Source: an uncultured Methanosarcinales archaeon
GTDB lineage: Archaea > Nanobdellota > Nanobdellia > Woesearchaeales > ARS49
DNA: 64,000 nt
Direction: 5' to 3'
Assembly (NCBI GenBank): GCA_964358315.1
Contig: CAYHOF010000004.1
Coordinates: 2,431 to 66,430, forward strand
Position numbers and translations under genes: made by a program. The notes below the pieces were generated by a model, which ran no database searches, was not told the DNA's origin, and saw only the letters and a program-made list of their open reading frames with translations. Positions 5,208 through 36,078 of this stretch are shown here, piece after piece (within the stretch, counting starts at the first letter, position 1; the number at the start of each line of letters is the position of its first letter).

Positions 5208-6020
5208 ATGCGAATTCCTGTGTTCGGCGATATTCACGGTAACATCGAGGGGATGTTCTTTGCATTGCAACAATTGCAGCGGGAGCATGAAGAAAAGTAT
5301 CCCTTTGTTCTGCAGGTCGGCGATCTAGGCTACTTTCCGACACGTGACTCCGAAGACTACGCCACGCGCAGGCATGGTAAGCATAGTGAGACTGAGCAGG
5401 GTGTGCGTCAGTATCTGGCGGCATCATCGTTGTACGAACGTTTTTTCCACAGGCCAGGCGATGATGCGCTGTGCGCCAAAATATTCTTCATACGCGGAAA
5501 CCACGAGGATCGCGGCGCTCTCAAGAAACTTGAGGTTGCGCGTCCGGAGGGCGCGATCGCGGCGGATCCGTATGGTGTGCTGCACTACCTTCCGGACGGT
5601 CGTGGTATCAGCATCCCTCTGACTCCGCATGATGACCTGACGATAGTGGGTTATGGAGGGATCGCGAAAGACCATCGTCCCAAGGCGTGCTCGAAGAATC
5701 CGGACATCGCGTTTTCTGAACTAGGATTGGACCGTCTCGTCAACTATCAGCCTGGCGCCATCGATGTGTTATTGACGCATCAAGGACCTGACATGGTCGA
5801 CAAAGGCGACGTGATGATCACTATGCTTTGTGAATCGCTCAAGCCGAAACTGCACCTTCATGGTCATACTCACCATTATTCTAGGCCTGTGATGATCGGC
5901 GAAACGTCAAGCTACTGCATTGGTCTTATGCCAGCGACCCCGCGGCCTGGCACGTCGGGATTTTATGGTTTCCTTGATGGCAGAAAAAACTTCACTCTTC
6001 TTGCAAGTCCTGTACGCTGA
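5208..6020 (+). CDS. Calcineurin-like metallophosphoesterase, PPP-family Ser/Thr phosphatase-like
   Basis: 'GDIHGN', 'QVGDLGYFPTRD' and 'RGNHEDR' (GDxHG / GDxxDR / GNHE signature) plus a later 'GHTH'. N-terminal region is paralogous to the N-terminal domain of giant protein 1. Confidence 0.7.
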   Translation: MRIPVFGDIHGNIEGMFFALQQLQREHEEKYPFVLQVGDLGYFPTRDSEDYATRRHGKHSETEQGVRQYLAASSLYERFFHRPGDDALCAKIFFIRGNHEDRGALKKLEVARPEGAIAADPYGVLHYLPDGRGISIPLTPHDDLTIVGYGGIAKDHRPKACSKNPDIAFSELGLDRLVNYQPGAIDVLLTHQGPDMVDKGDVMITMLCESLKPKLHLHGHTHHYSRPVMIGETSSYCIGLMPATPRPGTSGFYGFLDGRKNFTLLASPVR

Positions 6021-9000
6021 GCCCTGAGGGAAGTTCGAGCGGCCCGTTCAGGTTCAGTGTTTGGAGCCCCTTGATGCGTATGATGTTATGGTAGCCACGC
6101 AAGTACGGGTTGATCGACTCGTGGGCCAAGGTTATCATACGGCTCAGCATCGTTGCATCAACGACCGTGCCACGCGACAGTTGGCTTGCCAGGATGCTAC
6201 TATCGATGTCTAAGAAGCGGACCTTTCCATCCTTGCCAAGCGTCATCTGGATGCCTTCCGCTCGTCGGAGCACGTCATCAGGAAGACTGGCCTCTGTTTG
6301 TGAGCGTTCGTAGGAAATCGTACGTGCGAGAAGCCTTCGTTTATCGGCTTCGTACAGTGCTCCGAGAGCACCCTCGTCATTCCCACGCGCCTCGAGCGCC
6401 GTTGCGTAGCGCTCCATGCCATCTCCTTCTCGTCGTATGAGTGTCGCCAGCCCATCTCTGTGGTGCACGTTATTGCCAATGGTGCCATCTCCGGTTTTCC
6501 AGAAGAGTATGTGCAGCTCTCCGGCTTCGTCCTCATAGACCATCCCTTTCGCGCCGAACACGCCAGGAGCGTGCTCATTGGAAAACAGTTCGTGTATGTT
6601 GTCCCGTGTTATGGTGTCGGTTGCCAATGCCGATCTTCGTGTATCTTCCCGTTCAACGCTGGTGGGTAAGGGAGTTGTGGGGGTAGGTCGTGGTGGTGTA
6701 GGTATCAGTGTCACATCGCTGAATGCGGGTTTTGTCGGTGCGCTCGTGACGTGTCGAAGCGCGGTATTGCCCTCAACGTTGTTGATGAGAATTTGGAGCA
6801 GTGCGCTTTGATCAACGACCTGCGGTTGGACTATGACCGAATCCCCTGCGACAAGACCGAATCTTTCCCTCAGCGCAATGACGAGCGACCTGTCTGTGAT
6901 GGCCTCGGAAAGTCCCAACGCGTTCACGACAAAGTCACGGTGTGCGAGGTCTGCTGCATCGAACGCCGCGACTTTTCCCGTGTTTAATTGGCGTTGGGCG
7001 AGCGTCAGCGCAGACCCGAACTTGACGATGATTTCCTCGGCAATCGCACGATCAGACTGGCTCGCATACTCGGGGTGTTCTGCGAGGAACGAGGCCTTTG
7101 CCGCAGCGAATGCCACCTCGCCGGCGACGAGCGCATCCACGAGCGCACGTTGTGTTCCCTTCGTGCGAAGAACACTGTGCAGGCTCTCCTCGATGATGGT
7201 GGCTGCGCGTTGTTTTGGAGCCAAGTCCTCGGCGATAAACGTTTCTCCGCTCACGTCAGTGGCACCCGCGACACCCTCCTCAAGAAGACGACCGGCTGCC
7301 GTTGCCTCGCCTCGGCCGGACGCTTGGTCCGTGGTGGGCGCTGGCGTCGGTGCGACCGGTGCGCTTTGAGGCGTCACGGGCGCTGGAGCCACAGGTCCGG
7401 GCGGTGCAGGCGCGACCGCACGTGGTCCTGGTGCTTCTGGCGGGACGGTCAGCGTGGCGAGAACTTGATTCTTGACGCCGAACAATTGTGCAAGCCGGGT
7501 ACTGCCAAGGAGCGTTGCTTCTCGCTCGAGCGTGAGCGTGTCACGATCACGTTTGATGATGATATCCGTGTCGTCGAAACGGCGTGTCGTGGGTTCTAGA
7601 CCGAGTATGAGTGGCAGCTTTTCTGTCACGCGCTCGCCGCGGGCGTTGGTGCCGCGATCGACGACAACAAGGATCGTGTCAAGGTGGGTGCGTTCGATGC
7701 CTGCCACGCGCCGTCCGAGTCCGGCGTCGGCCAACGCGGTGTTGGTCGTGGCAAGGAAATCACGTCCTTGTTCGTAGAAGTTTCGAAGGACGATGTCCTT
7801 GACGTTTGGTGCCTTGTCGTGCGCGAGCGCATGGCGTGTCAGTAGCATCCCTGCCAGTTGTGTCTTGGCGTTCTCGGGCTGTTGTGCGATCTCTGCGTAC
7901 ACTTGTTCGAACTCGCGGAGCCTGTCCTGTTCGAACATGAGGATTCGCGAACTGATATCGGTAAGACTGGTGTCGGGGTTTGTTGCCAGGATCTCATTCG
8001 CCAGGCGCTGGTATGCCAGCACTTCAGCGACTTGTTGCGGCGTCATGGTACTGAGTTCGCGGACTGCTTCGCTTTCCTGCATTGCATCCAAGAGCGCATT
8101 TGCTGTTGCACGGTCTGTTTGCCAGCTCGCTTCGGCCGCGGAGAGCGTCGCGCGTCCTTGTTCCTCCAACTCCTTGCGCGCCTGTTCGATTTGTTGCTGT
8201 CGCTCGGCGTCGCTCATGGGTTGTGTGGTGCGAGGCTGCGGTACGATGGGCGCTGGAAGCGTTGCTTTCTCGATGAGGCGGTAGGATTGGACGCCTAATG
8301 ATCCTGTGGGTCCATGTCTGACTAGGTACGCCTGTTGGGTGCCGTCAGGTGATTGCAGGACGATGCGTGCTGGCGCGTTGCCGATGCCGCGGAGCGTCTT
8401 GACGTAGACACCTGTCACAGCAGTTCCCACGTTGATTGTGATCGTGTCTCCTTGCGCGATGCCTGCGGCCGCGATATCGTCGCGCACCAGTTCGGCGATG
8501 AGCACGTTGGTGGACGCCTGTCCGAAGCTCTCTCCTGTCGCGGGTGCGACTGCGTTGTCTGTCGGGATGTTGCGACGCTCTGCCTCAGCATGGACGCCTG
8601 CGGGGTCGTTGATATGATAGACAGGAGCGGACACGCCCGGTCGTGATGGTGGCGTGATGGGTGCGGGTTCGGCTATGGCGATCGGTCGGGCCTGCTGAAC
8701 GTCCCGCACGAGTTCTGCGGGCGGCGTGTTGGTGGGATCGTTCGCTTGGCGTTCGACGACGGCAGCGGCTTGGGAGATCGCGTCCACATCCGTCACTGGT
8801 GCCCGGGAGACAGCTTGTGGCGGTGCGGGTTGTGCGGTGCGTGGCCGTGTCAGCGTGATGCTCAACCCCGTCATGTCGTCGACCATCTCATCAACGAGCT
8901 GGCCGTTGCGTGCTATGCCGAGTTCTTCGTGTGCCTCTTGCACCAGTTGTTGCTGGAGGCTGACGATGTCGCGGGCGGAGAGCACTGCCTGCTTCAGCGT

Positions 9001-12000
9001 TTCCTGCAACGTTTCATCGAACGTTTTCACAATCGGCTGGTTGTTGTCAGTCCGCTTCCTGTTCACGATGTCGGTCGCGTCCGTGACGCCATCGCCGCGT
9101 ATCAATAATGCGTCGCCGTTGCTGAGAAACGCGCGGGTCACGACAGGTCCGGAAGGGATGAACGCGGTCCCGAAGCCCACGTCCATGGTTGCGCCTTTTG
9201 AATGGCCGAGGACGCGGCCTGGCGGGCCGAGTTGTGGGTTGTACGTGGCGCCCCGCACGTGTCCAACCTGATACCCATGGCTGTGGAGTGTGGCAACGCC
9301 TTGTTGGACGTTGATATCGATGGTCGCGCCTGAGATGAACTTGCCGATGTAGAGCCCTAACTGGTCCTGGTCCCGCATGGCGTCGAACTTTCGTCGCAGG
9401 AATTCGTCCCGGCTCGTCCTCTGTTCTGTCTGTGAGCTGGACGTGAATCCTGAGTCGATGATGGCCTGTTCGAGCACTTGCGCGGCCAGCCGCATGGTTT
9501 TTTCCCGCAGTTCGGCGTCGGCCGGTACCTTGATTGTCAGCCGTTCGAGCCCGTCTTTGATGCGTTGCAGTTGTTCGGCGGTGAGTCCATTCGGTCCGAT
9601 CGAGAGCACGTCGCTGCCAAGCGCCGTGAGGATTGCGGATTCTGTGGTGTGTCTCTCGATAGTGTCCGCCTGCACCGCTTGTGCTTTCCTGACCTGTTCG
9701 ATCGCATCAGCCCGGTCTTTCACGTTTTCTCCGGCCTTGTCCTTGATTGCGGTATACTCCTCGTTTGTGAGCGCGTCCGGATTGATCGAGAGGAGGCCTT
9801 CTCCGAGCGCTTCGTAGATTTTTTTCTGGGTCGCGGTCATGCCGCTGTCAGGACTGTAGGGCAGCACGGTCGGGATCCTCGCGCGCACGGCATCCTGGTA
9901 TTGCGGGAAGGTCTGGAGGATGCCCGACGCGGCCTTATAACGATCGAGCGCTGACGTGATGATTGGGAAGAGCGCGCCGCGGAGTTGCAGGTATCCGACC
10001 TCGCTCGTGACTGACGCGTCGTACGTCCCGGCAAGGACACCCGAGCCCGTGATGGCGATCTCGAGGACCCTGGCCGTGTTGTCATCGATGGCTTCGGTCA
10101 AGTCGATGGTGGGGTTGACGCCGTGCAGTCCCAGGTTCTCGCCGATGTACTTGCGCACTGTTCTTTTTTGTTCAAGCGTGAGGCTCTGGAACGTGCGTCG
10201 CGTGGCTTCGTTCTCTATCTGTTTGTAGAGAGCACCGATGATGCCTGCGTCGAGGCCATGGCCTGAGATGTCGCCGTATTGTATCGAGATGATGTCGTTG
10301 CCCTCCGCATCCTTCATGGCGACGACACGGACATGGTCGCCACCACCCATGCTGCTGAGCTGCTGCAGCCATTGCGCGAGCTCGACCGTGGTCCCGTCCT
10401 GGTACGCAAAGGTGAGTCCTGTCGTCGCGCCGTTGTCATCGACGGTCTTCTGGACCGTGACGCCCGGCGTCCGCTCGAGCGTGCGCACGTCGACGGACGG
10501 CTGCGCGGTGGCGCGCACGCCTTCAAGCGTGACTTGTCGCTTCCACGCGGCTATGCGCGCGGCGTTCTGTGCGGGTGTTTCAGTCGGCAGCTTCTTCTTG
10601 ACTGCAAACGGCACGAGTTTGTCTGCTTCGGCATTCACGAATTCTTCTTGGAGTCCACGGATAAGGTCGAGTTGTAGCTGCAGTCCGACGCTTTCATCAG
10701 CGGTTGCGGTGGCGAGTCGTGCGATGACCGTTCGTTCTGCGACAAGCGCGGCTTCCTGCATCAGCCAGCGTTCATGGCTGCTGATCTGGGATGCGCTACG
10801 GTCCGAATCCTTCGGTACTGTACGCAGGTTAAGCGCTGCACGGTAGCGCGTCACTGCCTCCTCTCGTGTCAACGAGACGGCATTACCGTCGATGACGATG
10901 TCGAGCAAGGCAAGGGGTGAAGGTCCGGTCTGTTGCACCGCGCGTTCGAGCCCCACGACCGTTCCATCCTTGTCGCGCGCGATCTTCTGGGTGTAATCCG
11001 GCAATGTCCCGTCCTTGCTTGTGATTTTTATCACGTCACCCAGGAGCACGTAGTCGAAGTTGGCGTCTTCATACCGTGCCACGTCGAGCATGTGGCGTTG
11101 CGTGAGCGGTTGTCCGTTGATGGTGGGCGTGCCCTCGCGCAACACGATGGGTGCTGGCTGGATCTCTGTTTGCGGCTGGCTCGGGCCGATGCCGGCGATC
11201 CTTCCTTTGGTGTCGGTGTAGATGGGGATGTCGAGGCCGGGTTGCGTCCCGTCGATACGCATGACACGGATGCCTGTAGGGGTGATCGTGTACGTGAAGA
11301 ATTCGTCCTGCACTTGCGGGTTTGTCACATCGATGGCCTGGCCGTTGATGGTGAGCTGGCCTTGTATCACCACCACAGGGGAGGGGGACTCCTCGCCCTT
11401 GATGATGATGCGGGGTTCGGTCACGCCGAGCAGCCTTCCGTTGTAGTCGCGCATGATCAGGACTTCTTGACGTGGTTGCGCCGCATCCTTGGGTATGATG
11501 TCGATGATGGCGCCCCTGCGTTGGTAGATGAAGTGCGTGTCCTCGACCCGTTGTCCTTCATCGACTTCCAACACGCCGATCTGGATTGCATCGCCCGCCA
11601 CCACGATCGCAGCCGGCGTCGGGACGATGGCTGGCTGCGGCGGCTGTTCGAGGAAGCTCTGGTCGAGTTCGTGCACTCTGCCGATCGTGAGCGGCGTGTT
11701 CTGGCCTTGCTGCCTCACTGTGGTCACGCCTGCATCGGTGACGACGTCGAGGATGGCAACCACCTGCCCGTCTGCCATGTCGCGGCTCACGCGCAGCTTC
11801 CCTTGCGTGGGGTCGTAGTCTATCGTGAAATCGCCCGCATAGACTGTCCGCGGTCTGCCGTCGAACGTGATTTCGGTCGTCGTCCCGCCTGCGAACACGC
11901 TGACGCCGTCCGCGCGCGGCACGATCATGGGCGTAGTGAGCGAGATGAGGTCACGCACGTGCTTGAGGTCGTCGTTGAGAAGGAGGAGTTGGAGCTGTCC

Positions 12001-14826
12001 ATCAACGCGATCATTATGGAGTATGGCTAGTGCGGCAAGGGTATTTTCTTGGGATCGGCTGGCGTCAGGAGACAGCACGATGGTGTCGATCTTTCCTGTG
12101 TGTTGGTCGATGTCGATGATGCTGGCGCCATCGACGTGTTCACTCGTCACGGTGACGATGCGACCGTCCTCATCGAGCACGACGTAATACTGGCTAAGCA
12201 CGCCACCCCAGACAGTCGTCACGTCTTGGGTCACTGCAGGCAGGTCTTTGCCTGTGCGTTGATTCACATCGTCTATGCCTTGTGCGAGCGCGTCGATGTT
12301 GTCGAACACGACGCGTTCCACCTCGCGTGAAGAGCCTGCAGGGAGCAGCTGGAAGTCGGAAGGCGTGAGGATCGAGCGCAGTGCCGCGTCGGCCACGATG
12401 TCTCCCTGGGCAACGGCGACAGGCGCTGCTTGTGGCGACACGCCTGTGATGATGTCGCGCACCAACAAGAGTTTGGCGAGTTCGTGCCTCGCTTTCGGGA
12501 TGTTTCTGGCGATCGTTTGGTATGCTTCCTGCAGTTGTGGGCGTCGCGTGGATCCTTCACGGGCCATCCGCATGAGTTCAGCATCGACGGCTTTGAGGTC
12601 GAGGCCAGGTCGCTGCGCGAGGACCTCGTTGCGTGCGTGCTCGAGCGCGAGCGTGCGGGCCATCTCGCGCGGCGTCATCCTGACGAGCTTTTTTACAGCG
12701 CCACGTTTTTCCGCTTCTTTGAGGAGCGCGTTTGCTTGAGGGTCTGCGTCCAGTTGTGCCCGCGCGTCAGCAAGCTGGCGCGCGACGTCAGGGGATAGTT
12801 GTTGCGCGAGTGTCCCTAGTTGCTGTTCGAGCGTCGATCGCGCTCGTGGCTTGGGTGGTTGTTTCGGATGTGGGATCGGCGCTGGCGGGATGACTGCCGC
12901 GACCGCTTGCGTGATGTCAGCGCCACGCGTTCTCTTGGCCCACCAGATGCGGAATGTCTCGATAGGGCCTGGCGTCCTGCCGAGCACAGACCTCGCTTGG
13001 AGCATGGTGACGCCCATGTCGAGGACGGCGATGACAGGAGAGATGATGAGGTACCCGAACGTCGCGGCCGACCTCAGCACCGTGGGTTTTGGTGAGGTGG
13101 TGGGCACGATCCTGGCGCGAACGTGATCCTTGATGGTGTCATCCACTGCTCTCTCGACGTCGAATTCGTCGGGGCGCTGGCCGGACGCGCCTGGCCCGCA
13201 CCTCATGCGGGACCTGAACCTGCATGCGTCATCTGCCTCGGTCCGGCGCTGCACGTCCGACGCGAACGGATCGGTGGCGGCACCGAGCGCGAGCAGCCGT
13301 TCGTAGAGCGCTTGGCTCATCGCGACCGTGCCGTCATCTTCTGTCTCGATCCCTTCTTCGACGTCTTGCGCGGCAACGCCGTGTTCTTCGCGTACCTGCG
13401 CGACTTGTGCGTCTGTCGACTGCGGTGTGACGGCTTGTTCGGCGCGTCCTTCTGTGGGTGTCGTGAAAAGCGCTTCGTTGCTCACAGGACCTAGTGCGGG
13501 CTCGCTGGGCCCGATCGCGGTGATGTGGGAGGGATCGGATGGGTCGAGGCCTTCTGCGGGGATGGCGACGACGACCATGGCATTGGGATTGTTGACCTGC
13601 ACGACCGTGCCACCGACGTCCAGCCTGTGCGTCCCATCAGTGACCGGTCTGTGGCCGATGATCATCTGCTGCACGTTCTGACCGGTCTCCCGACGTATGT
13701 CTGCAAGCAGGGTGGCGACCGCATTCGCTATCCTCTGTTGTTTCTGTTCGCGCGTGTACGGATCTTTCTCGGTCTCAAGCGTGTTGTCCGTGTGCGTGAG
13801 CGATTTGACCGCGTCATAGTCCTTGTTTTCGACATTGTAGTATGATTGCTGTATGTCCGGCGTCGTGTGCGATGCCACGAATGTCGACCCCACGACCATG
13901 AGCGGGAAACTTCGCGCCAGCGAGCCTAGCGATTCGAGCATCGCGGGTCCGAGTTTCTTCTCGATGTGATCGCGCAAGAGGCGGGATTCGCCTCCTGCTT
14001 CCGGGCTCACGAATTTGGCGGCGCCGCCGTAATATTCGGTCGCGTCGTCATGGTTGCCTTGGATGACGTGGAAGCTATCAGGGAAGGCTGCTTTGAGGTC
14101 CATGACCATCTGGAGCGCGGTCAATGATTCGACCATTTCCGCGTTGAGGCTTGCTTCGTCGCCCTGTTCCGCGTTTTCCCATCGCTCTTTGCCACGCTCT
14201 TCGGCGTGGAGGATGTCACCTAGCATGATGATGTTGGCTCCTGGCGGCGTTTGTCTGAGAAGTTCGATGTACGGCCTTTCAGAGATCGGCTCGATCTGCT
14301 GCAGCGCCTGCAGGAGCATGCCGCGACGGCCGTGCAGGTCGGGGATGATGAGGGCGGGCAGCGCTGGATTCTTGAGCGTGAGGATGCCGTTGGTGTCGAT
14401 GGCGCCGGCGAAATCGGCCGCGAGACCGGCTTCCACTGCCAGCGCTGCGCGGGCCTTGTCGATGGACGCCTGCAATGCTGTGGGGTCTATGCTTCGTGCG
14501 GCGGCCAGTGCGGCATAGTGATCGATGGATGTGGGGTCTGTGGGGATGGCGCTCGTCGCAGGAATGGTCTGACTGTCGAGAAACTGGAGTGCGATGATTG
14601 CATTGCGTCGTTCAGTGCTGTCCGCAGTGCTGTCCGCGATGATACGTTGCATCACGTCGCGCAGTTCTGCGCGCGCTTGTTCGTCCGTGATGCCTGCCGC
14701 CTTGTACTCGTTCAAGTATTGTTGGACTTGGTCGTGGACGCCTAATGGCAGCAGGCATGATTGTGCGTAGGTGGCAGGGAGCTGCAGGATGAGCAGTGCG
14801 ATGATGAGGAGGGCGCGTGTTCTCAT
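5992..14826 (-). CDS. Giant secreted multidomain protein (2944 aa). Signal peptide, N-terminal PPP-like metallophosphoesterase domain, 'RCGPGASG' module, Pro-rich linkers, long unknown regions.
   Basis: Single uninterrupted ORF. N-terminus 'MRTRALLIIALLILQLPATYAQS' reads as a signal peptide. 'IIPDLHGRRG...IIMLGDILH...VIQGNHDD' gives the phosphoesterase motifs. Codon usage is consistently coding, with an A-ending Ala/Gln/Thr codon bias. Confidence 0.8.
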   Translation of the reverse strand: MRTRALLIIALLILQLPATYAQSCLLPLGVHDQVQQYLNEYKAAGITDEQARAELRDVMQRIIADSTADSTERRNAIIALQFLDSQTIPATSAIPTDPTSIDHYAALAAARSIDPTALQASIDKARAALAVEAGLAADFAGAIDTNGILTLKNPALPALIIPDLHGRRGMLLQALQQIEPISERPYIELLRQTPPGANIIMLGDILHAEERGKERWENAEQGDEASLNAEMVESLTALQMVMDLKAAFPDSFHVIQGNHDDATEYYGGAAKFVSPEAGGESRLLRDHIEKKLGPAMLESLGSLARSFPLMVVGSTFVASHTTPDIQQSYYNVENKDYDAVKSLTHTDNTLETEKDPYTREQKQQRIANAVATLLADIRRETGQNVQQMIIGHRPVTDGTHRLDVGGTVVQVNNPNAMVVVAIPAEGLDPSDPSHITAIGPSEPALGPVSNEALFTTPTEGRAEQAVTPQSTDAQVAQVREEHGVAAQDVEEGIETEDDGTVAMSQALYERLLALGAATDPFASDVQRRTEADDACRFRSRMRCGPGASGQRPDEFDVERAVDDTIKDHVRARIVPTTSPKPTVLRSAATFGYLIISPVIAVLDMGVTMLQARSVLGRTPGPIETFRIWWAKRTRGADITQAVAAVIPPAPIPHPKQPPKPRARSTLEQQLGTLAQQLSPDVARQLADARAQLDADPQANALLKEAEKRGAVKKLVRMTPREMARTLALEHARNEVLAQRPGLDLKAVDAELMRMAREGSTRRPQLQEAYQTIARNIPKARHELAKLLLVRDIITGVSPQAAPVAVAQGDIVADAALRSILTPSDFQLLPAGSSREVERVVFDNIDALAQGIDDVNQRTGKDLPAVTQDVTTVWGGVLSQYYVVLDEDGRIVTVTSEHVDGASIIDIDQHTGKIDTIVLSPDASRSQENTLAALAILHNDRVDGQLQLLLLNDDLKHVRDLISLTTPMIVPRADGVSVFAGGTTTEITFDGRPRTVYAGDFTIDYDPTQGKLRVSRDMADGQVVAILDVVTDAGVTTVRQQGQNTPLTIGRVHELDQSFLEQPPQPAIVPTPAAIVVAGDAIQIGVLEVDEGQRVEDTHFIYQRRGAIIDIIPKDAAQPRQEVLIMRDYNGRLLGVTEPRIIIKGEESPSPVVVIQGQLTINGQAIDVTNPQVQDEFFTYTITPTGIRVMRIDGTQPGLDIPIYTDTKGRIAGIGPSQPQTEIQPAPIVLREGTPTINGQPLTQRHMLDVARYEDANFDYVLLGDVIKITSKDGTLPDYTQKIARDKDGTVVGLERAVQQTGPSPLALLDIVIDGNAVSLTREEAVTRYRAALNLRTVPKDSDRSASQISSHERWLMQEAALVAERTVIARLATATADESVGLQLQLDLIRGLQEEFVNAEADKLVPFAVKKKLPTETPAQNAARIAAWKRQVTLEGVRATAQPSVDVRTLERTPGVTVQKTVDDNGATTGLTFAYQDGTTVELAQWLQQLSSMGGGDHVRVVAMKDAEGNDIISIQYGDISGHGLDAGIIGALYKQIENEATRRTFQSLTLEQKRTVRKYIGENLGLHGVNPTIDLTEAIDDNTARVLEIAITGSGVLAGTYDASVTSEVGYLQLRGALFPIITSALDRYKAASGILQTFPQYQDAVRARIPTVLPYSPDSGMTATQKKIYEALGEGLLSINPDALTNEEYTAIKDKAGENVKDRADAIEQVRKAQAVQADTIERHTTESAILTALGSDVLSIGPNGLTAEQLQRIKDGLERLTIKVPADAELREKTMRLAAQVLEQAIIDSGFTSSSQTEQRTSRDEFLRRKFDAMRDQDQLGLYIGKFISGATIDINVQQGVATLHSHGYQVGHVRGATYNPQLGPPGRVLGHSKGATMDVGFGTAFIPSGPVVTRAFLSNGDALLIRGDGVTDATDIVNRKRTDNNQPIVKTFDETLQETLKQAVLSARDIVSLQQQLVQEAHEELGIARNGQLVDEMVDDMTGLSITLTRPRTAQPAPPQAVSRAPVTDVDAISQAAAVVERQANDPTNTPPAELVRDVQQARPIAIAEPAPITPPSRPGVSAPVYHINDPAGVHAEAERRNIPTDNAVAPATGESFGQASTNVLIAELVRDDIAAAGIAQGDTITINVGTAVTGVYVKTLRGIGNAPARIVLQSPDGTQQAYLVRHGPTGSLGVQSYRLIEKATLPAPIVPQPRTTQPMSDAERQQQIEQARKELEEQGRATLSAAEASWQTDRATANALLDAMQESEAVRELSTMTPQQVAEVLAYQRLANEILATNPDTSLTDISSRILMFEQDRLREFEQVYAEIAQQPENAKTQLAGMLLTRHALAHDKAPNVKDIVLRNFYEQGRDFLATTNTALADAGLGRRVAGIERTHLDTILVVVDRGTNARGERVTEKLPLILGLEPTTRRFDDTDIIIKRDRDTLTLEREATLLGSTRLAQLFGVKNQVLATLTVPPEAPGPRAVAPAPPGPVAPAPVTPQSAPVAPTPAPTTDQASGRGEATAAGRLLEEGVAGATDVSGETFIAEDLAPKQRAATIIEESLHSVLRTKGTQRALVDALVAGEVAFAAAKASFLAEHPEYASQSDRAIAEEIIVKFGSALTLAQRQLNTGKVAAFDAADLAHRDFVVNALGLSEAITDRSLVIALRERFGLVAGDSVIVQPQVVDQSALLQILINNVEGNTALRHVTSAPTKPAFSDVTLIPTPPRPTPTTPLPTSVEREDTRRSALATDTITRDNIHELFSNEHAPGVFGAKGMVYEDEAGELHILFWKTGDGTIGNNVHHRDGLATLIRREGDGMERYATALEARGNDEGALGALYEADKRRLLARTISYERSQTEASLPDDVLRRAEGIQMTLGKDGKVRFLDIDSSILASQLSRGTVVDATMLSRMITLAHESINPYLRGYHNIIRIKGLQTLNLNGPLELPSGLSVQDLQEE

Positions 14827-14969
14827 TTTTTCTGCGCCTCCTGTTGTTCGAGCGCGTCGAGCGCGAGCCCTATGATGTAGTCGTTGGGCTCATAGCCTGA
14901 TGCCTTGAGCCGTTTGATGCGCTCGAGATTGCGCTGGGAGATCTTCGTGATGCGTGTGATATCAGTCAT
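14823..14969 (-). CDS. Small ribbon-helix-helix/CopG-like putative DNA-binding protein (48 aa). Its TGA overlaps the ATG of giant gene 1 (ATGA).
   Basis: Translation MTDITRITKISQRNLERIKRLKASGYEPNDYIIGLALDALEQQEAQKK. Not in the ORF track because it is under 60 aa. 4-nt stop/start overlap with the giant gene. AT-rich promoter island upstream. Confidence 0.5.
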   Translation of the reverse strand: MTDITRITKISQRNLERIKRLKASGYEPNDYIIGLALDALEQQEAQKK

Positions 14970-15054
14970 GGTATACTAAAGTTTATCGTGATAGACTATA
15001 GATATATAAAAGTATACGTATATTTGTAGTCACTGACGTGTGATAAAAATAAGA

Positions 15055-15063
15055 AGATTTATA
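15055..15063 (+). promoter_or_regulatory. TATA box (gatttatata) ~40 nt upstream of the ATG at 15100, inside an AT-rich divergent promoter island at 14970–15099
   Basis: AT-rich 130-bp stretch in an otherwise GC-rich locus. GTATAC and CTATAG palindromes are present. Confidence 0.4.
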
Positions 15064-15099
15064 TAGGTGATTCCATCAGCGCGCTGCACGTGATCCACT

Positions 15100-15696
15100 A
15101 TGCCGCAAGACAACCTTATCCTCGTGTTCGATCTTGAACGTCTGGTCGCCGGCGAAAGCGATGCTGCCCGGCAGGACGTTCTCGCCGAGACGCAAACGTC
15201 CCTTCTCGAGAGGTTCGGTATCGTGGGCGCAAGCCACTGCCGCGCTGATCCGGCCGCGAACACCATCGCGCTTTCGTGGCTCTTTTGGGACACCATGCCC
15301 TCGCGGGAGCAACACTACGCGCAATGTAGAACGGCAAGGGCCGAGCGCGCCGTGCTCGACGCGGTGCCCAAAACACCGCAGTACCAGAACATCGACATCC
15401 CGTTGCGTTCTGACAATTTCGGGGCCGCGCAGTTCGCCTTGAGCGGTGCCATCGGCACCGACATCGGCGTCGGCGGTCATGGCTCGCCGCTACAGAATTG
15501 CACGCGCAAAGACAATAGCTTCGTCTACGCCACGCCCGATGGCAAGCACGTCTTCATCGAGGACCATTGTGTCGATCGGTACAGGTTCATGCGCTTGCGC
15601 ATCGACGATGATGCGCGTGCCATGCTCGACATGTTCGACGCCGCTCTCAACTTTAAGTATGCTCGGCAGAAACAATACGCTGCCAGGAAACAGTGA
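15100..15696 (+). CDS. Hypothetical protein (198 aa)
   Basis: GC3 ~75 % with the genome's preferred codons (gac, atc, ttc, ggc). TATA box upstream. No recognisable domain. Confidence 0.4.
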   Translation: MPQDNLILVFDLERLVAGESDAARQDVLAETQTSLLERFGIVGASHCRADPAANTIALSWLFWDTMPSREQHYAQCRTARAERAVLDAVPKTPQYQNIDIPLRSDNFGAAQFALSGAIGTDIGVGGHGSPLQNCTRKDNSFVYATPDGKHVFIEDHCVDRYRFMRLRIDDDARAMLDMFDAALNFKYARQKQYAARKQ

Positions 15697-15702
15697 CGCG
15701 CC

Positions 15703-30747: not shown

Positions 30748-31727
30748 GGTTCTACCTGCACGGAGAGTTGTACTGTTGTCATGGTGTGTTTGTTATCTTC
30801 TGCGGTAATGAGAATGCTGTACGTTCCTACGACGCTGCTGCGGAGAATCAGTTTTCCATCTTGTAGTGTCGCGATGGGACTCGACGTGCTGAGGGTGAAC
30901 TGATCCCCGTCAGGGTCTGTTGCATGGAGGTCTATCGTTTTGATTTCATCGCGCGTCACTAGAACGGTCGTCGGAGCGTCTAAGGTAGGTGCGCGGTTTG
31001 CTGCCGCTTGGATTGCGATGACAAATGTGTAACTATCGGAGGTTATGTCGCCAGCCTTGGTGGTGAGCAAGAATGTCGATGCATCGTAGGGTACGATATC
31101 GTGGGAGAACCGGTCTTGTGCGAGTGCGGTGATATCTATTGTTGTGCTCGTTGCGATTTGTTGCGCCGCACTGGCGACGCTGAGATAGAGCGGTCCGAGC
31201 GGTATGGCGACCCTTGCGACCTCGTTGCCCAGGGTGTACGTCAGCGCGCCTTTGGTGATGGTCACAGACCATTGTAGTGTGGCGCGCAGGTCTTCTCCTG
31301 CTTTGACCTCTACGATCGGCGGGACTGTTGCTATCACAAACCCCTCATTTTCCAATGCGGCTTTCTCGAAACATGAAGGCAGTGTTGATGCAACGTAGGT
31401 TGCGATATCATTCTCAATGTTGGAAAGTGTGGGGAGCGTCACATCCTTATTACGCACGCCATACGCGATAATAGTGTCTGCCTTGTGCAGTGCGTCCTCT
31501 GGTGCGAAGAGGTGGCCTCCTTGTGCACCGACGAGTCTTGCACCTTCTGTGAGGGCGCTCGTGAGACATGCTCGCACCTGTTGTTCCACAGGTCGGAACT
31601 CGATCGGCGCGACAAACGGTTGTTCTACGCCACTCGGAGTTCTGGTCAAATAAATTCCGAGCCCGACGACGATGATCAGGGCAAGGCCAAGGATGATGAT
31701 CACCGAGAGCTGCGCTCGTTTAATCAT
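30744..31727 (-). CDS. Membrane-anchored protein with a cadherin-like/Ig-like C-terminal domain. The alternative upstream start is at 31856.
   Basis: TM helix 'LSVIIILGLALIIVVGLGIYL'. C-terminal 'LHATDPDGDQFTLS...TYSILITAEDN' is cadherin-like. Stop overlaps the giant 2 ATG (ATGA). Confidence 0.55.
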   Translation of the reverse strand: MIKRAQLSVIIILGLALIIVVGLGIYLTRTPSGVEQPFVAPIEFRPVEQQVRACLTSALTEGARLVGAQGGHLFAPEDALHKADTIIAYGVRNKDVTLPTLSNIENDIATYVASTLPSCFEKAALENEGFVIATVPPIVEVKAGEDLRATLQWSVTITKGALTYTLGNEVARVAIPLGPLYLSVASAAQQIATSTTIDITALAQDRFSHDIVPYDASTFLLTTKAGDITSDSYTFVIAIQAAANRAPTLDAPTTVLVTRDEIKTIDLHATDPDGDQFTLSTSSPIATLQDGKLILRSSVVGTYSILITAEDNKHTMTTVQLSVQVEP

Positions 31728-32214
31728 GTGTGTCACCCCAGGCGCGCCAGAATCGTTCATAACCGTAGATGATGATACCCTTTTGCATCCGTTGGAGTGC
31801 TTCTTTTGTTGGCTGGACAAAGGTGATTTCGTGGCCGTCAATGGCATGCCTGCCATGTCCTTCTGTACTGAGAACGATATAGGAGTTTTCGACGTGGGCG
31901 ATTGCGATGGCGTTGGTGATGTTGGCCTTGATGCGGTTCATGATGGCTTGATTGTCGTTTGCGTGGAGGAATGTCGCGCTCCGGAGACTGGTGGCCCAAC
32001 AGAGTGCTCCGATCATCAATTCGTTGCGAATGTCGGGCTTGCACAGAATGGATGCTCCGATGCGCTGCATGTGAAGCATACCTGCTTCACTCAGACTTTT
32101 GGCGTGCTGGTGTGTCCAGCCGTAGCTTTTGGAGATCTTGCTTGAGAGGTGGTGGATGGTGAGACTATCAGCTGGATGCTGTTCAAAGTACTGGATGATC
32201 TCCTCTCCTTTCAT
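31720..32214 (-). CDS. Putative winged-HTH transcriptional regulator (164 aa)
   Basis: N-terminal 'IIQYFEQHPADSLTIHHLSSKISKSYGWTHQHAKSLSEAGML' is HTH-like. First gene of the operon that ends in giant protein 2. AT-rich promoter island upstream. Confidence 0.4.
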   Translation of the reverse strand: MKGEEIIQYFEQHPADSLTIHHLSSKISKSYGWTHQHAKSLSEAGMLHMQRIGASILCKPDIRNELMIGALCWATSLRSATFLHANDNQAIMNRIKANITNAIAIAHVENSYIVLSTEGHGRHAIDGHEITFVQPTKEALQRMQKGIIIYGYERFWRAWGDTHD

Positions 32215-32318
32215 TGGCGTATCAAAGGTGTGTTCCCTTTAAATATCTAACGAAAAAATGATAATTATAGTAATTTTCAATAAAATACTAATAAATATAT
32301 TAAAATATTTCTAAACGA

Positions 32319-32338
32319 GATTAATATTATCATAATTA
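32319..32338. promoter_or_regulatory. Perfect 20-bp palindrome ATTATCATAATTATGATAAT inside a ~150-bp strongly AT-rich island (32215–32362)
   Basis: Read directly from the sequence. The island separates divergent genes: the wHTH/giant 2 operon on the minus strand and the membrane protein gene at 32363..32983. Confidence 0.5.
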
Positions 32339-32362
32339 TGATAATAAGATGCCCATTACAAA

Positions 32363-32983
32363 TCACTTGAACGTTTGTCGTGTCAATGACATGATGAGGC
32401 ACGTTCCTACAAACGTGGTCGCGCCTAACAGGACAAATGGAATGATGAACGTCCATGCCAACAAAAATGAAATGCCGGTTGCAGCAACAGAAAGCAAGAT
32501 CCAAACCAAATACCCTGTCGTCATCGCGAGCAGATAATTCGGCTGCAATATTGTGGGAATAAGTTGTGCGAGCGCCACTTTGACCGGCCTGCTGAACACC
32601 AAGAGCATGAGTGCAGGAATGATGTATGATAGGATGATGAGGTACAACGGGGGAACGAGATAGGCGTATTGGGGTAACTCAGCAGTGCGGGAAACTATTT
32701 GTGATATGGTGATGAAGATGACACAAGGAAGACTGAGTATGCCAATGATGCCTATGGCCACGAGACCATCGCGAAAAAGCGGCCAGATGGGTTTCCACGG
32801 AGGTAATTGATAGGGCGCCTCTGTAAATGTGAGTCCTGTTCGGATGGCATAGCCGAGCACCATGATATTGAAGGGTGGAAGAAGGGTCAGTATGCTCGCA
32901 ACCAAGAGCTTTCGCCAGTCTATGAGCGGGCGGATCAGTGCTGCTTTGAGATTCATGCTACTCCCTTTTGGGTCGGATAACAC
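32363..32983 (-). CDS. Polytopic membrane protein, hypothetical
   Basis: 206 aa with ~6 hydrophobic helices. An alternative start is at M10 (32956). Confidence 0.5.
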   Translation of the reverse strand: MLSDPKGSSMNLKAALIRPLIDWRKLLVASILTLLPPFNIMVLGYAIRTGLTFTEAPYQLPPWKPIWPLFRDGLVAIGIIGILSLPCVIFITISQIVSRTAELPQYAYLVPPLYLIILSYIIPALMLLVFSRPVKVALAQLIPTILQPNYLLAMTTGYLVWILLSVAATGISFLLAWTFIIPFVLLGATTFVGTCLIMSLTRQTFK

Positions 32984-33004
32984 TGTGCCCAGATAAAAAT
33001 GTAT

Positions 33005-34333
33005 CTAGTACTCGCCCACGCCTCGCCGCGCTTTCTGCTTCACGGGTTTCTCGTCCTTGAACGGCTCGCTTGGTTTGTCGTCATCGTTGGGGATTGCCGG
33101 GACTTTCATGCCCGGGACGCCGAAGGCGCTGAAGTCCGGATGGCCGAACACGCCGTCATAGCCTGGCCGGAAGGGGATGGTCTCGTTGCGGTCGGCAAGG
33201 ATGAGCTCGGCAAGCTTTGCGTCCGTGACTTTGGCGATGCGTTCGGCCGACGCGTCACGCAGTACCGCGAACTCATTGTCAAACTCCTTCATGAGGTCGG
33301 CGTGGATGGCGAAGACCTTCTTTGCGGTCACGGCAGTGCCGAGGCGTGACGCGATGACTTCGGAGAGCGGGATGAGGTGCTGGAACGGCTTTGCCTTCGG
33401 TGATTTCTGCCCTTCAGGGCGGTCTGCCAATGCCTCGACGCGCTGCAGCACGCCCACGGTCAGTTGCCGGTGGCATTTCGGGCACAGGTTGTTGAGTTTC
33501 AACGACGCAGCAGGCGCCAAACACACGTCGCACGCGCGGTGCCCGTCGTAATGGTACTTGCCTTCCTCAGGGAAGAACTCGATCGTGGACGTCAAACCAT
33601 ATCCTGTGCGGATCGCGCTGATCACGTCCTTGTACGTGAGCTTCGTGTCGAACACTGTCGCTTCCCGTCCGAGTTTCCAGGGCCAGTGGGAGTGCGCGTC
33701 CGAGAAGGACACGATGTTGAGATGGTCGAGCTGTTTGACGCGCCAGTTCATGGGCGGGTCGGACGAGAGCCCTGTCTCGATCGCGTGGATGTGTTTTGAT
33801 TGGTTCCCGAAACATTCCGTGAATGAATCAAACCCGGACGCGGAGCCGAACATGGCGAACCACGGCGTCCAGATGTGCGCGGGGATGACCTCGATGTCAT
33901 GGCTGATGCCGCGCAAGAGTTCGACGATGCGTTCGCACGAGAGCTTGAAGATCGGGCGGCCGTCATAGTCGATGCGGCCGTGACGTAGCAGCATCTCCTG
34001 CACTTGCGCGATGACGTCCAGAGAAGGGAAGAGTGCGACAAGATGCACGCGTCTGCCCTTGCCGCCTTGCGTGTAGACAAAGGACAATTCGGTCTGGAGC
34101 ATGAACGGATAATCCGTCGCCGTGCGCCAGATCCCATCGCCATCGTCGTCGTTGAGGTGCTGGCGCAGTTCCTGATACCATTGCGGGTGTTGCGCGTCGC
34201 CGGTACCGAGCAGCGTGATGCCTTTGACGCGCGCGAACTTCTCCATCGTCGGGATGGTGAGTTGGTTGCTTGTCGCGCGCGCGAAACGGGAGTGCACATG
34301 CAGGTCGGCGATGATCTCCGTCATACCTTCCAT
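33005..34333 (-). CDS. PHP-domain protein, endonuclease Q (EndoQ)-like
   Basis: N-terminal 'ADLHVHSRFARATS' is a PHP motif. C-terminal 'CDVCLAPAASLKLNNLCPKCH' is a Zn finger. ~440 aa, the size of the archaeal TIGR00375/EndoQ family. Confidence 0.6.
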   Translation of the reverse strand: MEGMTEIIADLHVHSRFARATSNQLTIPTMEKFARVKGITLLGTGDAQHPQWYQELRQHLNDDDGDGIWRTATDYPFMLQTELSFVYTQGGKGRRVHLVALFPSLDVIAQVQEMLLRHGRIDYDGRPIFKLSCERIVELLRGISHDIEVIPAHIWTPWFAMFGSASGFDSFTECFGNQSKHIHAIETGLSSDPPMNWRVKQLDHLNIVSFSDAHSHWPWKLGREATVFDTKLTYKDVISAIRTGYGLTSTIEFFPEEGKYHYDGHRACDVCLAPAASLKLNNLCPKCHRQLTVGVLQRVEALADRPEGQKSPKAKPFQHLIPLSEVIASRLGTAVTAKKVFAIHADLMKEFDNEFAVLRDASAERIAKVTDAKLAELILADRNETIPFRPGYDGVFGHPDFSAFGVPGMKVPAIPNDDDKPSEPFKDEKPVKQKARRGVGEY

Positions 34334-34357
34334 GTCGCGTTTGCGGAGTATAAAGAT

Positions 34358-35140
34358 TTATGCGGCAATCCGCTTGGTCTGAATGGCAGTGTACGCGTTG
34401 AGCGTCTCGTACAAGAACTGCATCGCAGGACGCTGCTGCGGGTTCTCGAGCATGCAGATGCGCAGCATGGTCTGCAGGTCAGGCGTCAGGTCGCGGCAGA
34501 GCAGGTGTTTGGCGACGGCCGCCATCGAGTAGACGTCCTCCGCGGGCGACGCGACGAGGTTGCGCTTTTTGAGTCTGGCGCGTTCGTGTTCGGGTGGCTC
34601 GTACCTGTCGGTGCTCGTGTGCGGCACGTCTTTTGCACCGACCTGCACGCTGGGGCCGAAGTCGATGAGGCGCGCCTCGAGTGCGTCGGTGACGAGGATG
34701 TTGCCTGGCTTGATGTCGCGCACGACGATGCCGTGATCGTTGATCTTCATGATGCCTTCGCAGGCGTGCGTGAGTAGCGCGGCGATGTCGTTCGGAGTAT
34801 ACGTGCGGCTCTCGTAGCAGTCTTTGAGGTCGCGCGGGAGTTGCGGCGTGACGATGCAGGGCAGGTTCGTTCCGTCAGGATAGGAAAGACGCGTGTCGAG
34901 CGGCGTCAGGATATGGTCGGGGAAGCGTTGCCCAAGGTCGTGCCAGACGCGTGATTCCTTGATGATCTCGTTCTGTGCTCTCGGATCGTACGCGGTCTTG
35001 ATGTGGACGTGCTGGGTCGATCCATGCTGAAGAAGGTCGGCGACGTAGTGCTGGACATGGTCGTTGCTACCAAGATGGCGTACGTTGGCAAGCGTCCCTT
35101 CTACGCTGTGCAGCACCGGTGTATGGCAGTACATATTCAC
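34358..35140 (-). CDS. Eukaryotic-like Ser/Thr protein kinase domain protein
   Basis: 'IVVRDIKPGNILV' (catalytic loop) and 'LIDFG' (DFG), plus an upstream VHIK lysine. Confidence 0.65.
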   Translation of the reverse strand: MNMYCHTPVLHSVEGTLANVRHLGSNDHVQHYVADLLQHGSTQHVHIKTAYDPRAQNEIIKESRVWHDLGQRFPDHILTPLDTRLSYPDGTNLPCIVTPQLPRDLKDCYESRTYTPNDIAALLTHACEGIMKINDHGIVVRDIKPGNILVTDALEARLIDFGPSVQVGAKDVPHTSTDRYEPPEHERARLKKRNLVASPAEDVYSMAAVAKHLLCRDLTPDLQTMLRICMLENPQQRPAMQFLYETLNAYTAIQTKRIAA

Positions 35141-35187
35141 TCACTAGTGGTAACAAAACGTTCAGGGACTATATAAATATTACGTCC

Positions 35188-36078
35188 TCAGAGCGCTTCG
35201 ACCAGCTCGCGCACGTATATTTCTTGTGATCGAGGGGGAGTAGGGGTTGTACGCGGTGTGGGTGGTGCTCTCAGGCCGGCGAGGCGTTGCAGCGCGTCAA
35301 GCATGGGTGCCATGCCGAGGCGCTTCTCAGGGTCGTCGCAAAGATTGCCTTCGATCGCTTCGCGCAGCGCGCCGCGCAACGGACCATACCGTTCCAGATG
35401 GTTGTCTTCCAGGGTTGCCGCGAACGCATATGCATCTTGGCAGGGGTGTCCTGGTATGTCGACATCTGCGACACGCGCGGCGGCAAGTTCAGGAGGCTCG
35501 CGGCCAGGCGTGTATGTGCGTGGCGCGAGCGGATCTGCGGTGCCGATCCCGAGCGCAGGACCGAAATCGATGAGGCGCGTTTCGAGCGAATCACCGTCGA
35601 TGACCATGTTCTCGGCCTTGACATCGCGCTGCACCATGCCGTTGTACTCTTGCGTTGTGGTCTCGTGGAGGTCCATGAGGCCCCGCGCGGCGTAGGCAAG
35701 ATGAGCATAGAATCTCTTACGGGGTAAGGGATCCGCGCTCTGCACTGTCTTGCGACGATATGGCGTCGCGATACAGGGCACCTCCTGCCCGTCAGGAGCG
35801 GTGAATCGCAGGCCGACAAGCGGCATCACGTACTGCGACGCGGCAGCCGCGCGTCGGTGCCAGAACAATTCGCGTTCGATAACTTGAGATTGGAGGAGTT
35901 TGTATGCGATCTTGATGAACACGCGCTGCCGCGTCGTGCCATCATCGAACGCGGCGGTGTAATAGTTGTCGTCGCGGCCATAGCGAAAGACGCGGACGTC
36001 GGTCAGCGCGCAGTTAGGACGCAGTGCCTTGAGCTTGGCTAGTTTGCACGTACCCATCTTCAACCCACTGTGACGCAC
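35188..36078 (-). CDS. Eukaryotic-like Ser/Thr protein kinase domain protein (paralog)
   Basis: 'MVQRDVKAENMVI' and 'LIDFGPALG'. Pro/Thr-rich C-terminal tail. Confidence 0.65.
   Translation of the reverse strand: MRHSGLKMGTCKLAKLKALRPNCALTDVRVFRYGRDDNYYTAAFDDGTTRQRVFIKIAYKLLQSQVIERELFWHRRAAAASQYVMPLVGLRFTAPDGQEVPCIATPYRRKTVQSADPLPRKRFYAHLAYAARGLMDLHETTTQEYNGMVQRDVKAENMVIDGDSLETRLIDFGPALGIGTADPLAPRTYTPGREPPELAAARVADVDIPGHPCQDAYAFAATLEDNHLERYGPLRGALREAIEGNLCDDPEKRLGMAPMLDALQRLAGLRAPPTPRTTPTPPRSQEIYVRELVEAL

Follow-up and report, generated by a model that had tools for sequence, protein, structure and literature searches.

Two giant proteins of a groundwater DPANN archaeon combine phospho-enzyme domains with a rare cysteine-hairpin module and may be exported

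The DNA considered here is a window of 64,000 nucleotides (contig CAYHOF010000004.1, positions 2,431 to 66,430, assembly GCA_964358315.1) that harbours two giant genes on its minus strand, giant 1 (G1) and giant 2 (G2), whose products carry phospho-enzyme domains and share a small module with a pair of cysteines. The organism is a DPANN archaeon; its metagenome-assembled genome (MAG) is labelled 'Nanoarchaeota archaeon' at NCBI (92-kb contig) and was obtained from Hainich groundwater, well H43, 0.1-0.2 µm filter fractions. Since profile searches identified a NOG1 GTPase, a proteasome alpha protein, exosome Rrp4 and a TIGR00375 PHP-family protein in the window, the giants are placed in archaeal DNA with a housekeeping setting. 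The GC content is mostly 0.57-0.62 and amounts to 0.49-0.54 across 22-34 kb; this dip (22000-34000) takes in the genes upstream of G2 and, within G2, the N-terminal two-thirds. An initial annotation had portrayed the locus as a coherent phospho-signalling island. The phospho-enzyme theme of the giants has been strengthened by the present analysis, whereas the small regulators and the kinases could not be upheld as members, and the evidence suggests a toolkit for host-cell manipulation and not a signalling island of the ordinary kind. The two giants and their recognizable parts are the following.

5992-14826, minus strand: G1, intact open reading frame (ORF) of 2944 aa; exact protein on record from the NCBI MAG
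14761-14826, minus strand: G1 residues 1-22, signal-peptide-like N-terminus (sequence reading and hydropathy scan)
13537-14391, minus strand: G1 residues ~146-430, calcineurin-like metallophosphoesterase of a distinct subfamily (Pfam segment match and relatives)
13108-13428, minus strand: G1 residues 467-573, shared Cys-hairpin module (Cys535/Cys543, loop CRFRSRMRC)
12997-13080, minus strand: G1 residues 583-610, hydrophobic segment, candidate membrane helix (hydropathy peak 1.81)
8827-10359, minus strand: G1 residues 1490-2000, putative SpoIIE/PP2C-type phosphatase with a split (Pfam, spliced construct)
16081-30747, minus strand: G2, intact ORF of 4888 aa (ORF calls)
30679-30747, minus strand: G2 residues 1-23, signal-peptide-like N-terminus (sequence reading; hydropathy peak 2.46)
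29923-30075, minus strand: G2 residues 225-275, two short Cys loops in a beta-rich N-terminal region (C225-x5-C231, C267-x7-C275)
27136-27222, minus strand: G2 residues 1176-1204, TPR-like repeat (TPR_2 25.8 bits, E 9e-6, cut-off 27 bits)
20176-20493, minus strand: G2 residues 3419-3524, shared Cys-hairpin module (Cys3486/Cys3494, loop CKVASPLRC)
19750-20001, minus strand: G2 residues 3583-3666, 'domain X' copy 1 (internal repeat)
16603-18126, minus strand: G2 residues ~4208-4715, pyruvate phosphate dikinase (PPDK)-type ATP-grasp and phospho-His swivel (Pfam, NCBIfam, PDB alignment)
16084-16419, minus strand: G2 residues 4777-4888, domain X copy 2 and C-terminal tail ending in Cys4888 (internal repeat)

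Both frames are intact at the lengths first reported. Genes of this size call for scrutiny of a trivial explanation, namely that mis-assembly or overlooked stops joined ordinary genes. Two points speak for such an artefact: the assembly is built from short metagenomic reads, and the whole of G2 has no exact match in the protein collection. It is nonetheless extremely improbable: stop-free ORFs of 8.8 and 14.7 kb at ~58% GC are not chance products, the exact G1 protein is on record, both ORFs open with signal peptides and are coupled by ATGA overlaps to upstream genes, and other organisms hold giants with the same domains. Moreover, window positions 3944-8984, which cover the 3' 3 kb of G1, were recovered in four independent assemblies at 99.6-100% identity. 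An apparent 18-nt 'indel' in contig L002 proved to be an N-run scaffold gap and not strain variation. Contig L003 departs from the window by six clustered substitutions in G1 codons 2397-2416 (7579-7636), with four of the five affected codons non-synonymous; a hot spot of micro-diversity or an error in the local assembly would account for the cluster.

Segment-wise profile searches showed the domain calls of the initial annotation for the two giants to be essentially right, with some refinements. G1 had been described as beginning with a PPP/calcineurin-like phosphoesterase. Its first residues follow the canonical n/h/c layout of a signal peptide, MRTRALLIIALLILQLPATYA followed by QS (MRTR, a hydrophobic core, then TYA before the predicted cleavage site and QS after it), and Cys24 lies after this site. 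The domain beyond belongs to the Metallophos superfamily: PF00149 matched a 450-aa segment only, at a borderline 22.1 bits (E 2e-4, cut-off 21.5), the full-length protein scoring none, and the region is 34% identical over 386 aa to the PF00149-annotated region of a Woesearchaeota giant with PF00149 and FHA domains (P0001). A PDB sequence search with the N-terminal 480 aa gave no match. The motifs are PDLHG (162), GDILHAE (203), GNHDD (257) and GHR (390). Measured against the PPP signature (GDxHG, GDxxDRG, GNH[ED]), PDLHG and GNHDD are kept and the signature fails at motif II; because GDILHAE replaces GDxxDRG, the domain is assigned to the superfamily and not to canonical PPP enzymes. This G1-type subfamily was traced to 15 related loci, 12 in GTDB genomes and three in JGI metagenomes, on ORFs ranging from 342 aa to at least 5279 aa, the giant carriers spanning at least 2666 to at least 5279 aa. 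The hosts are DPANN archaea, bacteria of the Candidate Phyla Radiation (CPR; Saccharibacteria, Gottesman-, Levy- and Daviesbacteria) and unclassified MAGs, and several of the proteins also bear FHA domains. No conserved small regulator gene was found upstream at the loci of this subfamily.

A second enzyme, absent from the initial annotation, appears to be present further along G1 in the form of a split SpoIIE/PP2C phosphatase. The motifs GDISGHG, GDALLIRGDGVTDA and DDMTGLSITL are in place, and an insert of ~255 aa (residues 1549-1802) interrupts the domain. As a contiguous segment it matched SpoIIE (PF07228) at 15.4 bits (E 0.018; cut-off 25 bits); after removal of residues 1549-1802, a splice chosen after the motifs had been seen, the score rose to 33.8 bits (E 4e-8, model positions 9-171 of 192). 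A PDB match of residues 1480-1970 to designed armadillo repeats was dismissed as chance. G1 also contains internal duplications (640-850 with 2183-2390, and 1087-1171 with 1245-1324), and the remainder of the protein has no relatives detectable by Pfam segment scans or homologue search.

The N-terminus of G2 presents the same canonical layout, MNRKFLCIMQIILILCSSIPVLA followed by DS (MNRK, a hydrophobic core, then VLA before the predicted site and DS after it). Pfam segment scans and local comparisons covered the N-terminal 85% of the protein. Judged by eye, a helical repeat region that includes the TPR-like repeat may span residues ~900-2560; beyond it come A/Q/T-rich stretches, two beta repeats and then the shared module. 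A weak hydrophobic segment, glycine-rich and with a hydropathy of 1.58, occupies residues 2593-2615.

The initial annotation had G2 end in a complete ATP-grasp plus phospho-His swivel unit. The unit was confirmed, with PPDK_N (PF01326) at E 2e-38 and the PEP-utilizers swivel (PF00391) at E 3e-16, and its terminal position was not: a tail of 173 aa follows. Residues ~4208-4715 align with residues 10-514 of solved PPDK (E 5e-77), the catalytic His4662 in GGRLSHAAVVAR being aligned to GGMTSHAAVVAR of the latter, and the PPDK residues GGK, SVRSGA, SMPG, DIEF, LQTR and GG..SHAAVVAR are kept. The TIGR01828 match runs from model position 9 to 509 of 865 and reaches 366 bits against a cut-off of 843 bits; NCBIfam also matches G2 to the barrel-less PRK05878 type, and Pfam found no match to the phosphoenolpyruvate (PEP)/pyruvate TIM barrel (PF02896). 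The best 120 relatives are PPDKs of 850-960 aa or barrel-less proteins of 520-730 aa, 35-41% identical and mostly archaeal where named; none of them is a giant and none covers the 173-aa tail.

G2 thus shares ATP-grasp and swivel, at 37-41% identity, with PPDK (EC 2.7.9.1) and with its barrel-less relatives of ~540-730 aa (PRK05878 type). It differs from them in that the unit is Cys-free, lacks PEP-utilizers_C (PF02896), is embedded in a 4888-aa protein with a signal peptide and bears a unique tail. Rifampin phosphotransferase, glucan water dikinase and PigC/RedH likewise use an ATP-grasp and a swivel His to reach a non-pyruvate acceptor. Weak NCBIfam matches of G2 to RPH, PigC and RedH lie far below the PPDK scores, and none of the recognizable acceptor-binding domains of these enzymes is found in G2. 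As the pyruvate/PEP barrel has been lost, the core, which would load phosphate from ATP on its swivel His, must hand it to another acceptor. A candidate is domain X, a repeat of ~85 aa with one copy after the module (3583-3666) and one after the swivel (4777-4864; 16156-16419). The copies match each other at E 1.6e-7 and conserve the pattern GYI...PG.E..HG...FNS, which includes an HG. Because copy 2 occupies the place of the acceptor barrel of PPDK, the domain may serve phosphate acceptance or docking; an AlphaFold2 (AF2) model of the tail with domain X is of low confidence (pLDDT 48.6).

The only significant similarity between G1 and G2 is the shared two-cysteine module noted at the outset (~105 aa), for which the alignment of G1 467-573 with G2 3419-3524 gives 43% identity (E 3e-19). 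The module is extremely rare, with about six proteins known among billions. An exhaustive HMM search of 1.84 billion representative proteins returned four matches, three of which are genuine (P0003, P0004 and P0005). The top match, P0002 (E 6e-33 over 33 stretches), was rejected as a spurious Cys-free repeat protein, each repeat contributing 9 bits or less and the score turning negative under a profile built from eight sequences. This eight-sequence profile recovered only P0005 from 5.8 billion proteins, and a search of JGI metagenomes with a low-GC module alignment found nothing. The eight copies share DG, L, two Cys 6-7 residues apart and E..VE. An AF2 model from six sequences (pLDDT 75.5, pTM 0.63) predicts the order helix-helix-hairpin-helix-helix-hairpin-helix with one cysteine on each of the neighbouring strands that make up the second hairpin. 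No significant structural superposition was obtained with the N-terminal fold of eIF2beta/eIF5, and the module is treated as a probable undescribed small alpha/beta domain.

Wherever the neighbours of the module are known, they include phospho-enzymes. P0004, a protein of 951 aa, combines a signal peptide, SpoIIE, the module and Pkinase and has no internal hydrophobic segment. P0003 is the C-terminal half of a giant of at least 6814 aa (L007, 2-20443, plus strand) on a JGI contig of 31.5% GC; the domains of this giant are an ABC1 kinase, two LysM, Amidase_2 and two module copies with flanking hydrophobic segments. P0005 is a TARA fragment. A further giant, L008 (1801-15111, plus strand; ORF of at least 4437 aa), contains FHA, a G1-type Metallophos, two divergent modules that follow double hydrophobic stretches, HEAT, HAD and a C-terminal Metallophos. 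The contig of the last protein (34% GC) is labelled 'uncultured Methanosarcinales archaeon', a label that may reflect mis-binning of DPANN DNA. Similar proteins marked by the module are few and come from unrelated low-GC organisms.

These associations bear on a reading in which the giants would be structural surface or adhesion proteins, a fibrous coat of the episymbiont whose enzyme-like domains act as binding modules or pseudoenzymes. Surface proteins are the usual interpretation of giants in CPR and DPANN (PMC8080830), and most of the sequence is indeed repeat-like or helical without enzymatic signature (TPR-like and beta repeats, duplications, A/Q/T-rich stretches resembling coiled coils), a membrane protein with an Ig/cadherin-like domain being co-transcribed with G2. 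The catalytic evidence makes this reading improbable. The dikinase, 37-41% identical to active PPDKs, preserves the catalytic His and the residues for nucleotide binding, Metallophos still has its metal-binding motifs and PP2C its own motifs, and the module consistently accompanies catalytic phospho-domains in unrelated proteins.

The distribution of cysteines would fit passage across a membrane. Cysteine accounts for 0.10% of G1 and 0.18% of G2 as opposed to 1.65% in 24 other ORFs of the window, a 10- to 16-fold depletion. The PPDK-like region of G2 has no Cys at all, whereas each of its 120 closest PPDK homologues has between one and eight (median four). Within the mature proteins the residues form short-range pairs, G1 535/543 and G2 225/231, 267/275 and 3486/3494, and those that remain are terminal: Cys24 of G1 (14755-14757), the second mature residue, and Cys4888 of G2 (16084-16086), the last one. 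P0004 has a Cys directly after its cleavage site (between AYA and D) and another as its last residue, and a Woesearchaeota giant of 4249 aa has a single Cys, third from the end. Terminal cysteines in giants nearly devoid of other cysteines are noted for P0004, P0007 and L022 besides G1 and G2. To our knowledge, no known sorting or lipidation signal fits the terminal cysteines of the giants. A low Cys content is a common trait of proteins that are unfolded while crossing membranes, autotransporter passengers and RTX proteins being examples. The pattern was noticed post hoc; it is hard to ascribe to chance and fits exported proteins.

Signal-peptide layouts, claimed by the initial annotation for both giants, can be read from the sequence in these two and also in P0004, an independent protein with the module. 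Taken together with the domain content, this leads to the interpretation, held with roughly even confidence, that G1 and G2 are exported giant host-interaction proteins carrying phospho-enzymes. Encoded in two separate operons of an episymbiotic DPANN archaeon, both multi-domain proteins would leave the cell by the Sec route. The cargo of G1 would consist of two protein-phosphatase-type domains, one from the FHA-associated Metallophos subfamily and the other a split PP2C/SpoIIE, and that of G2 of the PPDK-derived dikinase core. In each, the Cys pair of the module would form a disulfide-stapled loop at the junction of the enzymatic portion and the remainder. As these enzymes need ATP or phosphoprotein substrates, action inside the host, or in cytoplasmic continuity with it, would be most likely. 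A host-attack context is found in a relative, the L007 giant, which joins the module with LysM and Amidase_2.

Several observations weigh against export. The signal-peptide calls come from sequence reading and a hydropathy scan. The hydrophobic segment 583-610 of G1, which directly follows the module and has an Asp at its middle, and the weak segment 2593-2615 of G2 might each keep the enzymes beyond them on the cytoplasmic side. The L008 giant opens with FHA and Metallophos, lacks a signal peptide at its N-terminus and displays many hydrophobic segments; at least this member of the family therefore resembles a polytopic membrane protein whose phospho-domains are cytosolic. The window yielded no recognizable machinery for secretion, injection or processing. 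In addition, motif II of the G1 Metallophos (GDxxHAE) departs from the PPP signature, significance for the PP2C domain was reached only in the construct spliced by the authors once the motifs had been seen, and more than 80% of both giants is without a homologue or domain detectable by Pfam segments or homologue search.

The first of these points lead to the main rival of the export interpretation, in which the giants would serve the archaeon's own signalling as membrane-anchored scaffolds, each a giant one-component transmembrane device with a sensor or adhesin part outside and with phosphatases and dikinase facing its own cytoplasm. An ATP-dependent dikinase, PP2C and FHA-associated Metallophos are classically cytoplasmic. 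The N-terminal segment and the two internal hydrophobic segments would stay in place as membrane helices, and the signal-peptide-free L008 giant has double hydrophobic stretches flanking its modules and phosphatases. A precedent exists in nanohaloarchaeal proteins with a signal peptide, an ectodomain, a transmembrane (TM) helix and a cytosolic ATPase (PMC10266531). This arrangement is nevertheless considered rather unlikely for G1 and G2. P0004 has the signal peptide, SpoIIE, module and kinase without any internal hydrophobic segment; the segment of G2 is weak, with much glycine; G1 and G2 would have the module on opposite membrane sides; and the complete loss of Cys from the PPDK-like domain is unexpected for a cytoplasmic enzyme. 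Even as a scaffold, G1 would still expose its Metallophos domain to the outside, because this domain lies between the signal peptide and the sole internal hydrophobic segment.

Among described systems, the nearest kind are the giant 'Archaeovorins' of Omnitrophota, in which PPDK_N is reported to be frequent and HEAT/TPR and HAD also occur (West-Roberts et al., bioRxiv 10.1101/2023.11.21.568195); Ser/Thr phosphatase domains are common to giants of Actinobacteria and Omnitrophota (bioRxiv 10.1101/2023.11.21.568195). The statement of the initial annotation that no described system shows this combination has to be qualified by these PPDK_N-bearing proteins. In both cases ultra-small cells with a predatory or episymbiotic life encode multi-domain proteins of great length with N-terminal signal peptides, genes with class-III signal peptides lie nearby, and enzymes of a cytoplasmic type pose the puzzle of a predicted extracellular location; G2 specifically matches in its signal-peptide-like N-terminus, its TPR_2 repeat (25.8 bits, slightly below cut-off) and PPDK_N. 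In contrast, the Archaeovorins are bacterial, exceed 10,000-30,000 aa and are rich in glycosyltransferases and hydrolases with N-terminal C39/S8 peptidases, whereas G1 and G2 are archaeal, measure 2944 and 4888 aa and show none of these domains in Pfam searches; their cargo is mainly phosphatases and one dikinase core, and no Cys-hairpin module is reported from Archaeovorins.

Next in likeness are the giant surface proteins of nanohaloarchaea (SPEARE; Hamm 2019), whose C-terminal ATPase faces the cytosol according to a re-analysis (PMC10266531). They too are DPANN proteins with a Sec signal peptide, a giant ectodomain and a C-terminal NTP-using domain and are proposed to act in host subjugation. 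Their Ig-like/WD40 ectodomain, clear TM helix and VirB4/TraG-type ATPase are not found in G1 and G2 by segment-wise Pfam searches, and no sequence similarity was detected. What is new here in comparison with known giants is the Cys-hairpin module and the phosphatase/dikinase cargo.

A different comparison, by analogy, can be drawn with AB-type toxins. Diphtheria toxin, botulinum neurotoxin, exotoxin A and Shiga toxin possess a disulfide-bridged nicking loop. The module similarly may place a short Cys loop between an enzymatic part and the rest, adjoining hydrophobic segments in G1, L007 and L008, and the G1 loop CRFRSRMRC is highly basic. There is no sequence or fold relation with these toxins, and the loops of other module members are Gly/Ser-rich. 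Pursued to its end, the analogy would define a hitherto undescribed class of exported 'phospho-effector' proteins of ultra-small symbionts by the Cys-hairpin module, which would be a reducible and possibly protease-nicked AB-toxin-like junction that releases phosphatases, kinases or the dikinase into the host to rewrite its phosphorylation or metabolism, while the unpaired terminal cysteines would couple the giants head-to-tail into a unit of ~7,800 residues. This full scheme is speculative and decidedly improbable as it stands.

The control of hosts by DPANN and CPR organisms is largely unknown, and giant genes are the main unexplained candidates for it. The locus offers domains small enough to express, namely the dikinase core, two phosphatase types and the rare Cys-hairpin domain. 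If export is true, G1 and G2 would open the list of candidate secreted phospho-signalling effectors in archaea, and the Cys pattern would be a simple genomic marker for finding more.

The genes that surround the giants are listed below.

5208-6020, plus strand: stand-alone 270-aa metallophosphoesterase, convergent with G1
14823-14969, minus strand: 48-aa gene, its TGA overlapping the ATG of G1 (ATGA)
15100-15696, plus strand: 198-aa gene between the giants (gene call; no Pfam matches)
15703-16092, plus strand: 129-aa gene between the giants (gene call; no Pfam matches)
30744-31727, minus strand: 327-aa membrane protein, its TGA overlapping the ATG of G2
31720-32214, minus strand: 164-aa gene at the head of the G2 operon (fold assignment without profile support)
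34358-36078, minus strand: two tandem ePK (eukaryotic-type protein kinase)-like kinases of 260 and 296 aa (Pkinase matches)

Contrary to the initial annotation, the giants are not strictly adjacent, since the 198-aa and 129-aa plus-strand genes intervene. The predicted ATGA start/stop overlaps are present between the 48-aa gene and G1 and between an ORF of 370 aa, which encodes the membrane protein, and G2. The 164-aa gene ends in an 8-nt overlap with an ATG (31727) that lies inside the membrane-protein ORF, and this ATG is probably the true start, giving the 327-aa product. AT-rich TATA-like boxes precede the 48-aa gene and the 164-aa gene. From the overlaps and the separate boxes it is deduced that there are two operons and not one, the first running from the 48-aa gene to G1 and the second from the 164-aa gene through the membrane protein to G2. 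Sigma-70 and terminator scans of the region between the giants are uninformative for an archaeon. The 129-aa gene overlaps the 3' end of G2 convergently by 12 nt, mirroring the 29-nt overlap of the 270-aa metallophosphoesterase gene with the 3' end of G1.

The small genes at the head of the operons had been taken for DNA-binding regulators, the 48-aa protein as ribbon-helix-helix (RHH)-like and the 164-aa protein as winged helix-turn-helix (wHTH). For the former, which is called in five contigs, no RHH family was found in Pfam (E up to 10) or NCBIfam and the PDB matches are irrelevant; its strand-helix-helix pattern is a visual impression only. For the latter, no helix-turn-helix family was found in Pfam (E up to 10) or NCBIfam, and the PDB matches have E >1, none of them being wHTH. 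With Pfam, NCBIfam and PDB searches providing no support, both assignments remain impressions of the eye. Among relatives, a small regulator gene upstream was found for P0004 only. On the contig of this protein (L006) a 53-aa AbrB/SpoVT-like gene (MVKVVVNNGQFKITIPKELALEKGW..., 1024-1185, plus strand) overlaps the P0004 start, in a position analogous to that of the 48-aa gene before G1.

The membrane protein ahead of G2, originally called cadherin-like, begins MIKRA followed by QLSVIIILGLALIIVVGLGIYL (QLS at the junction) and continues with a 22-residue hydrophobic helix, which has the look of a class-III (type IV pilin-like) signal peptide. Its C-terminal Ig/cadherin-like domain is weakly matched by Big_9 (E 4e-4, below cut-off) and Cadherin_4 (E 0.08), so that an Ig-type fold is a tentative call.

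The stand-alone phosphoesterase at the 3' end of G1 had been described as a convergent paralogue of the G1 domain. Its convergent orientation and its superfamily were borne out (PF00149, E 2e-14; NCBI name metallophosphoesterase; no signal peptide), and close paralogy was not, the two sharing 21% identity over 107 aa (E 0.003). At the L007 locus a convergent 298-aa Metallophos gene (20447-21343, minus strand) abuts the 3' end of the giant in the same arrangement as in the window. The two convergent genes have no sequence similarity, so orthology was rejected and it is the arrangement alone that recurs.

The tandem kinases were correctly recognized as such, and they are paralogues. The 260-aa protein matches Pkinase (PF00069) at E 1.7e-13 (51 bits against a cut-off of 31.7 bits) and the 296-aa protein at E 1.3e-4 (21.9 bits, below cut-off); they are 31% identical, both have RD..K..N and DFG motifs and neither has a signal peptide. 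Their proposed connection with the giants found no support. A DUF4013 membrane protein and the TIGR00375 PHP-family protein, both unrelated, separate them from the G2 operon, similarity to the module-linked kinase of P0004 is marginal (E 0.01), and neither their position nor conservation nor similarity connects them with the giants. A third kinase-like gene of the window (55487-57604, plus strand) encodes a 705-aa protein with an APH-type (kinase-fold) phosphotransferase domain (E 2e-10).

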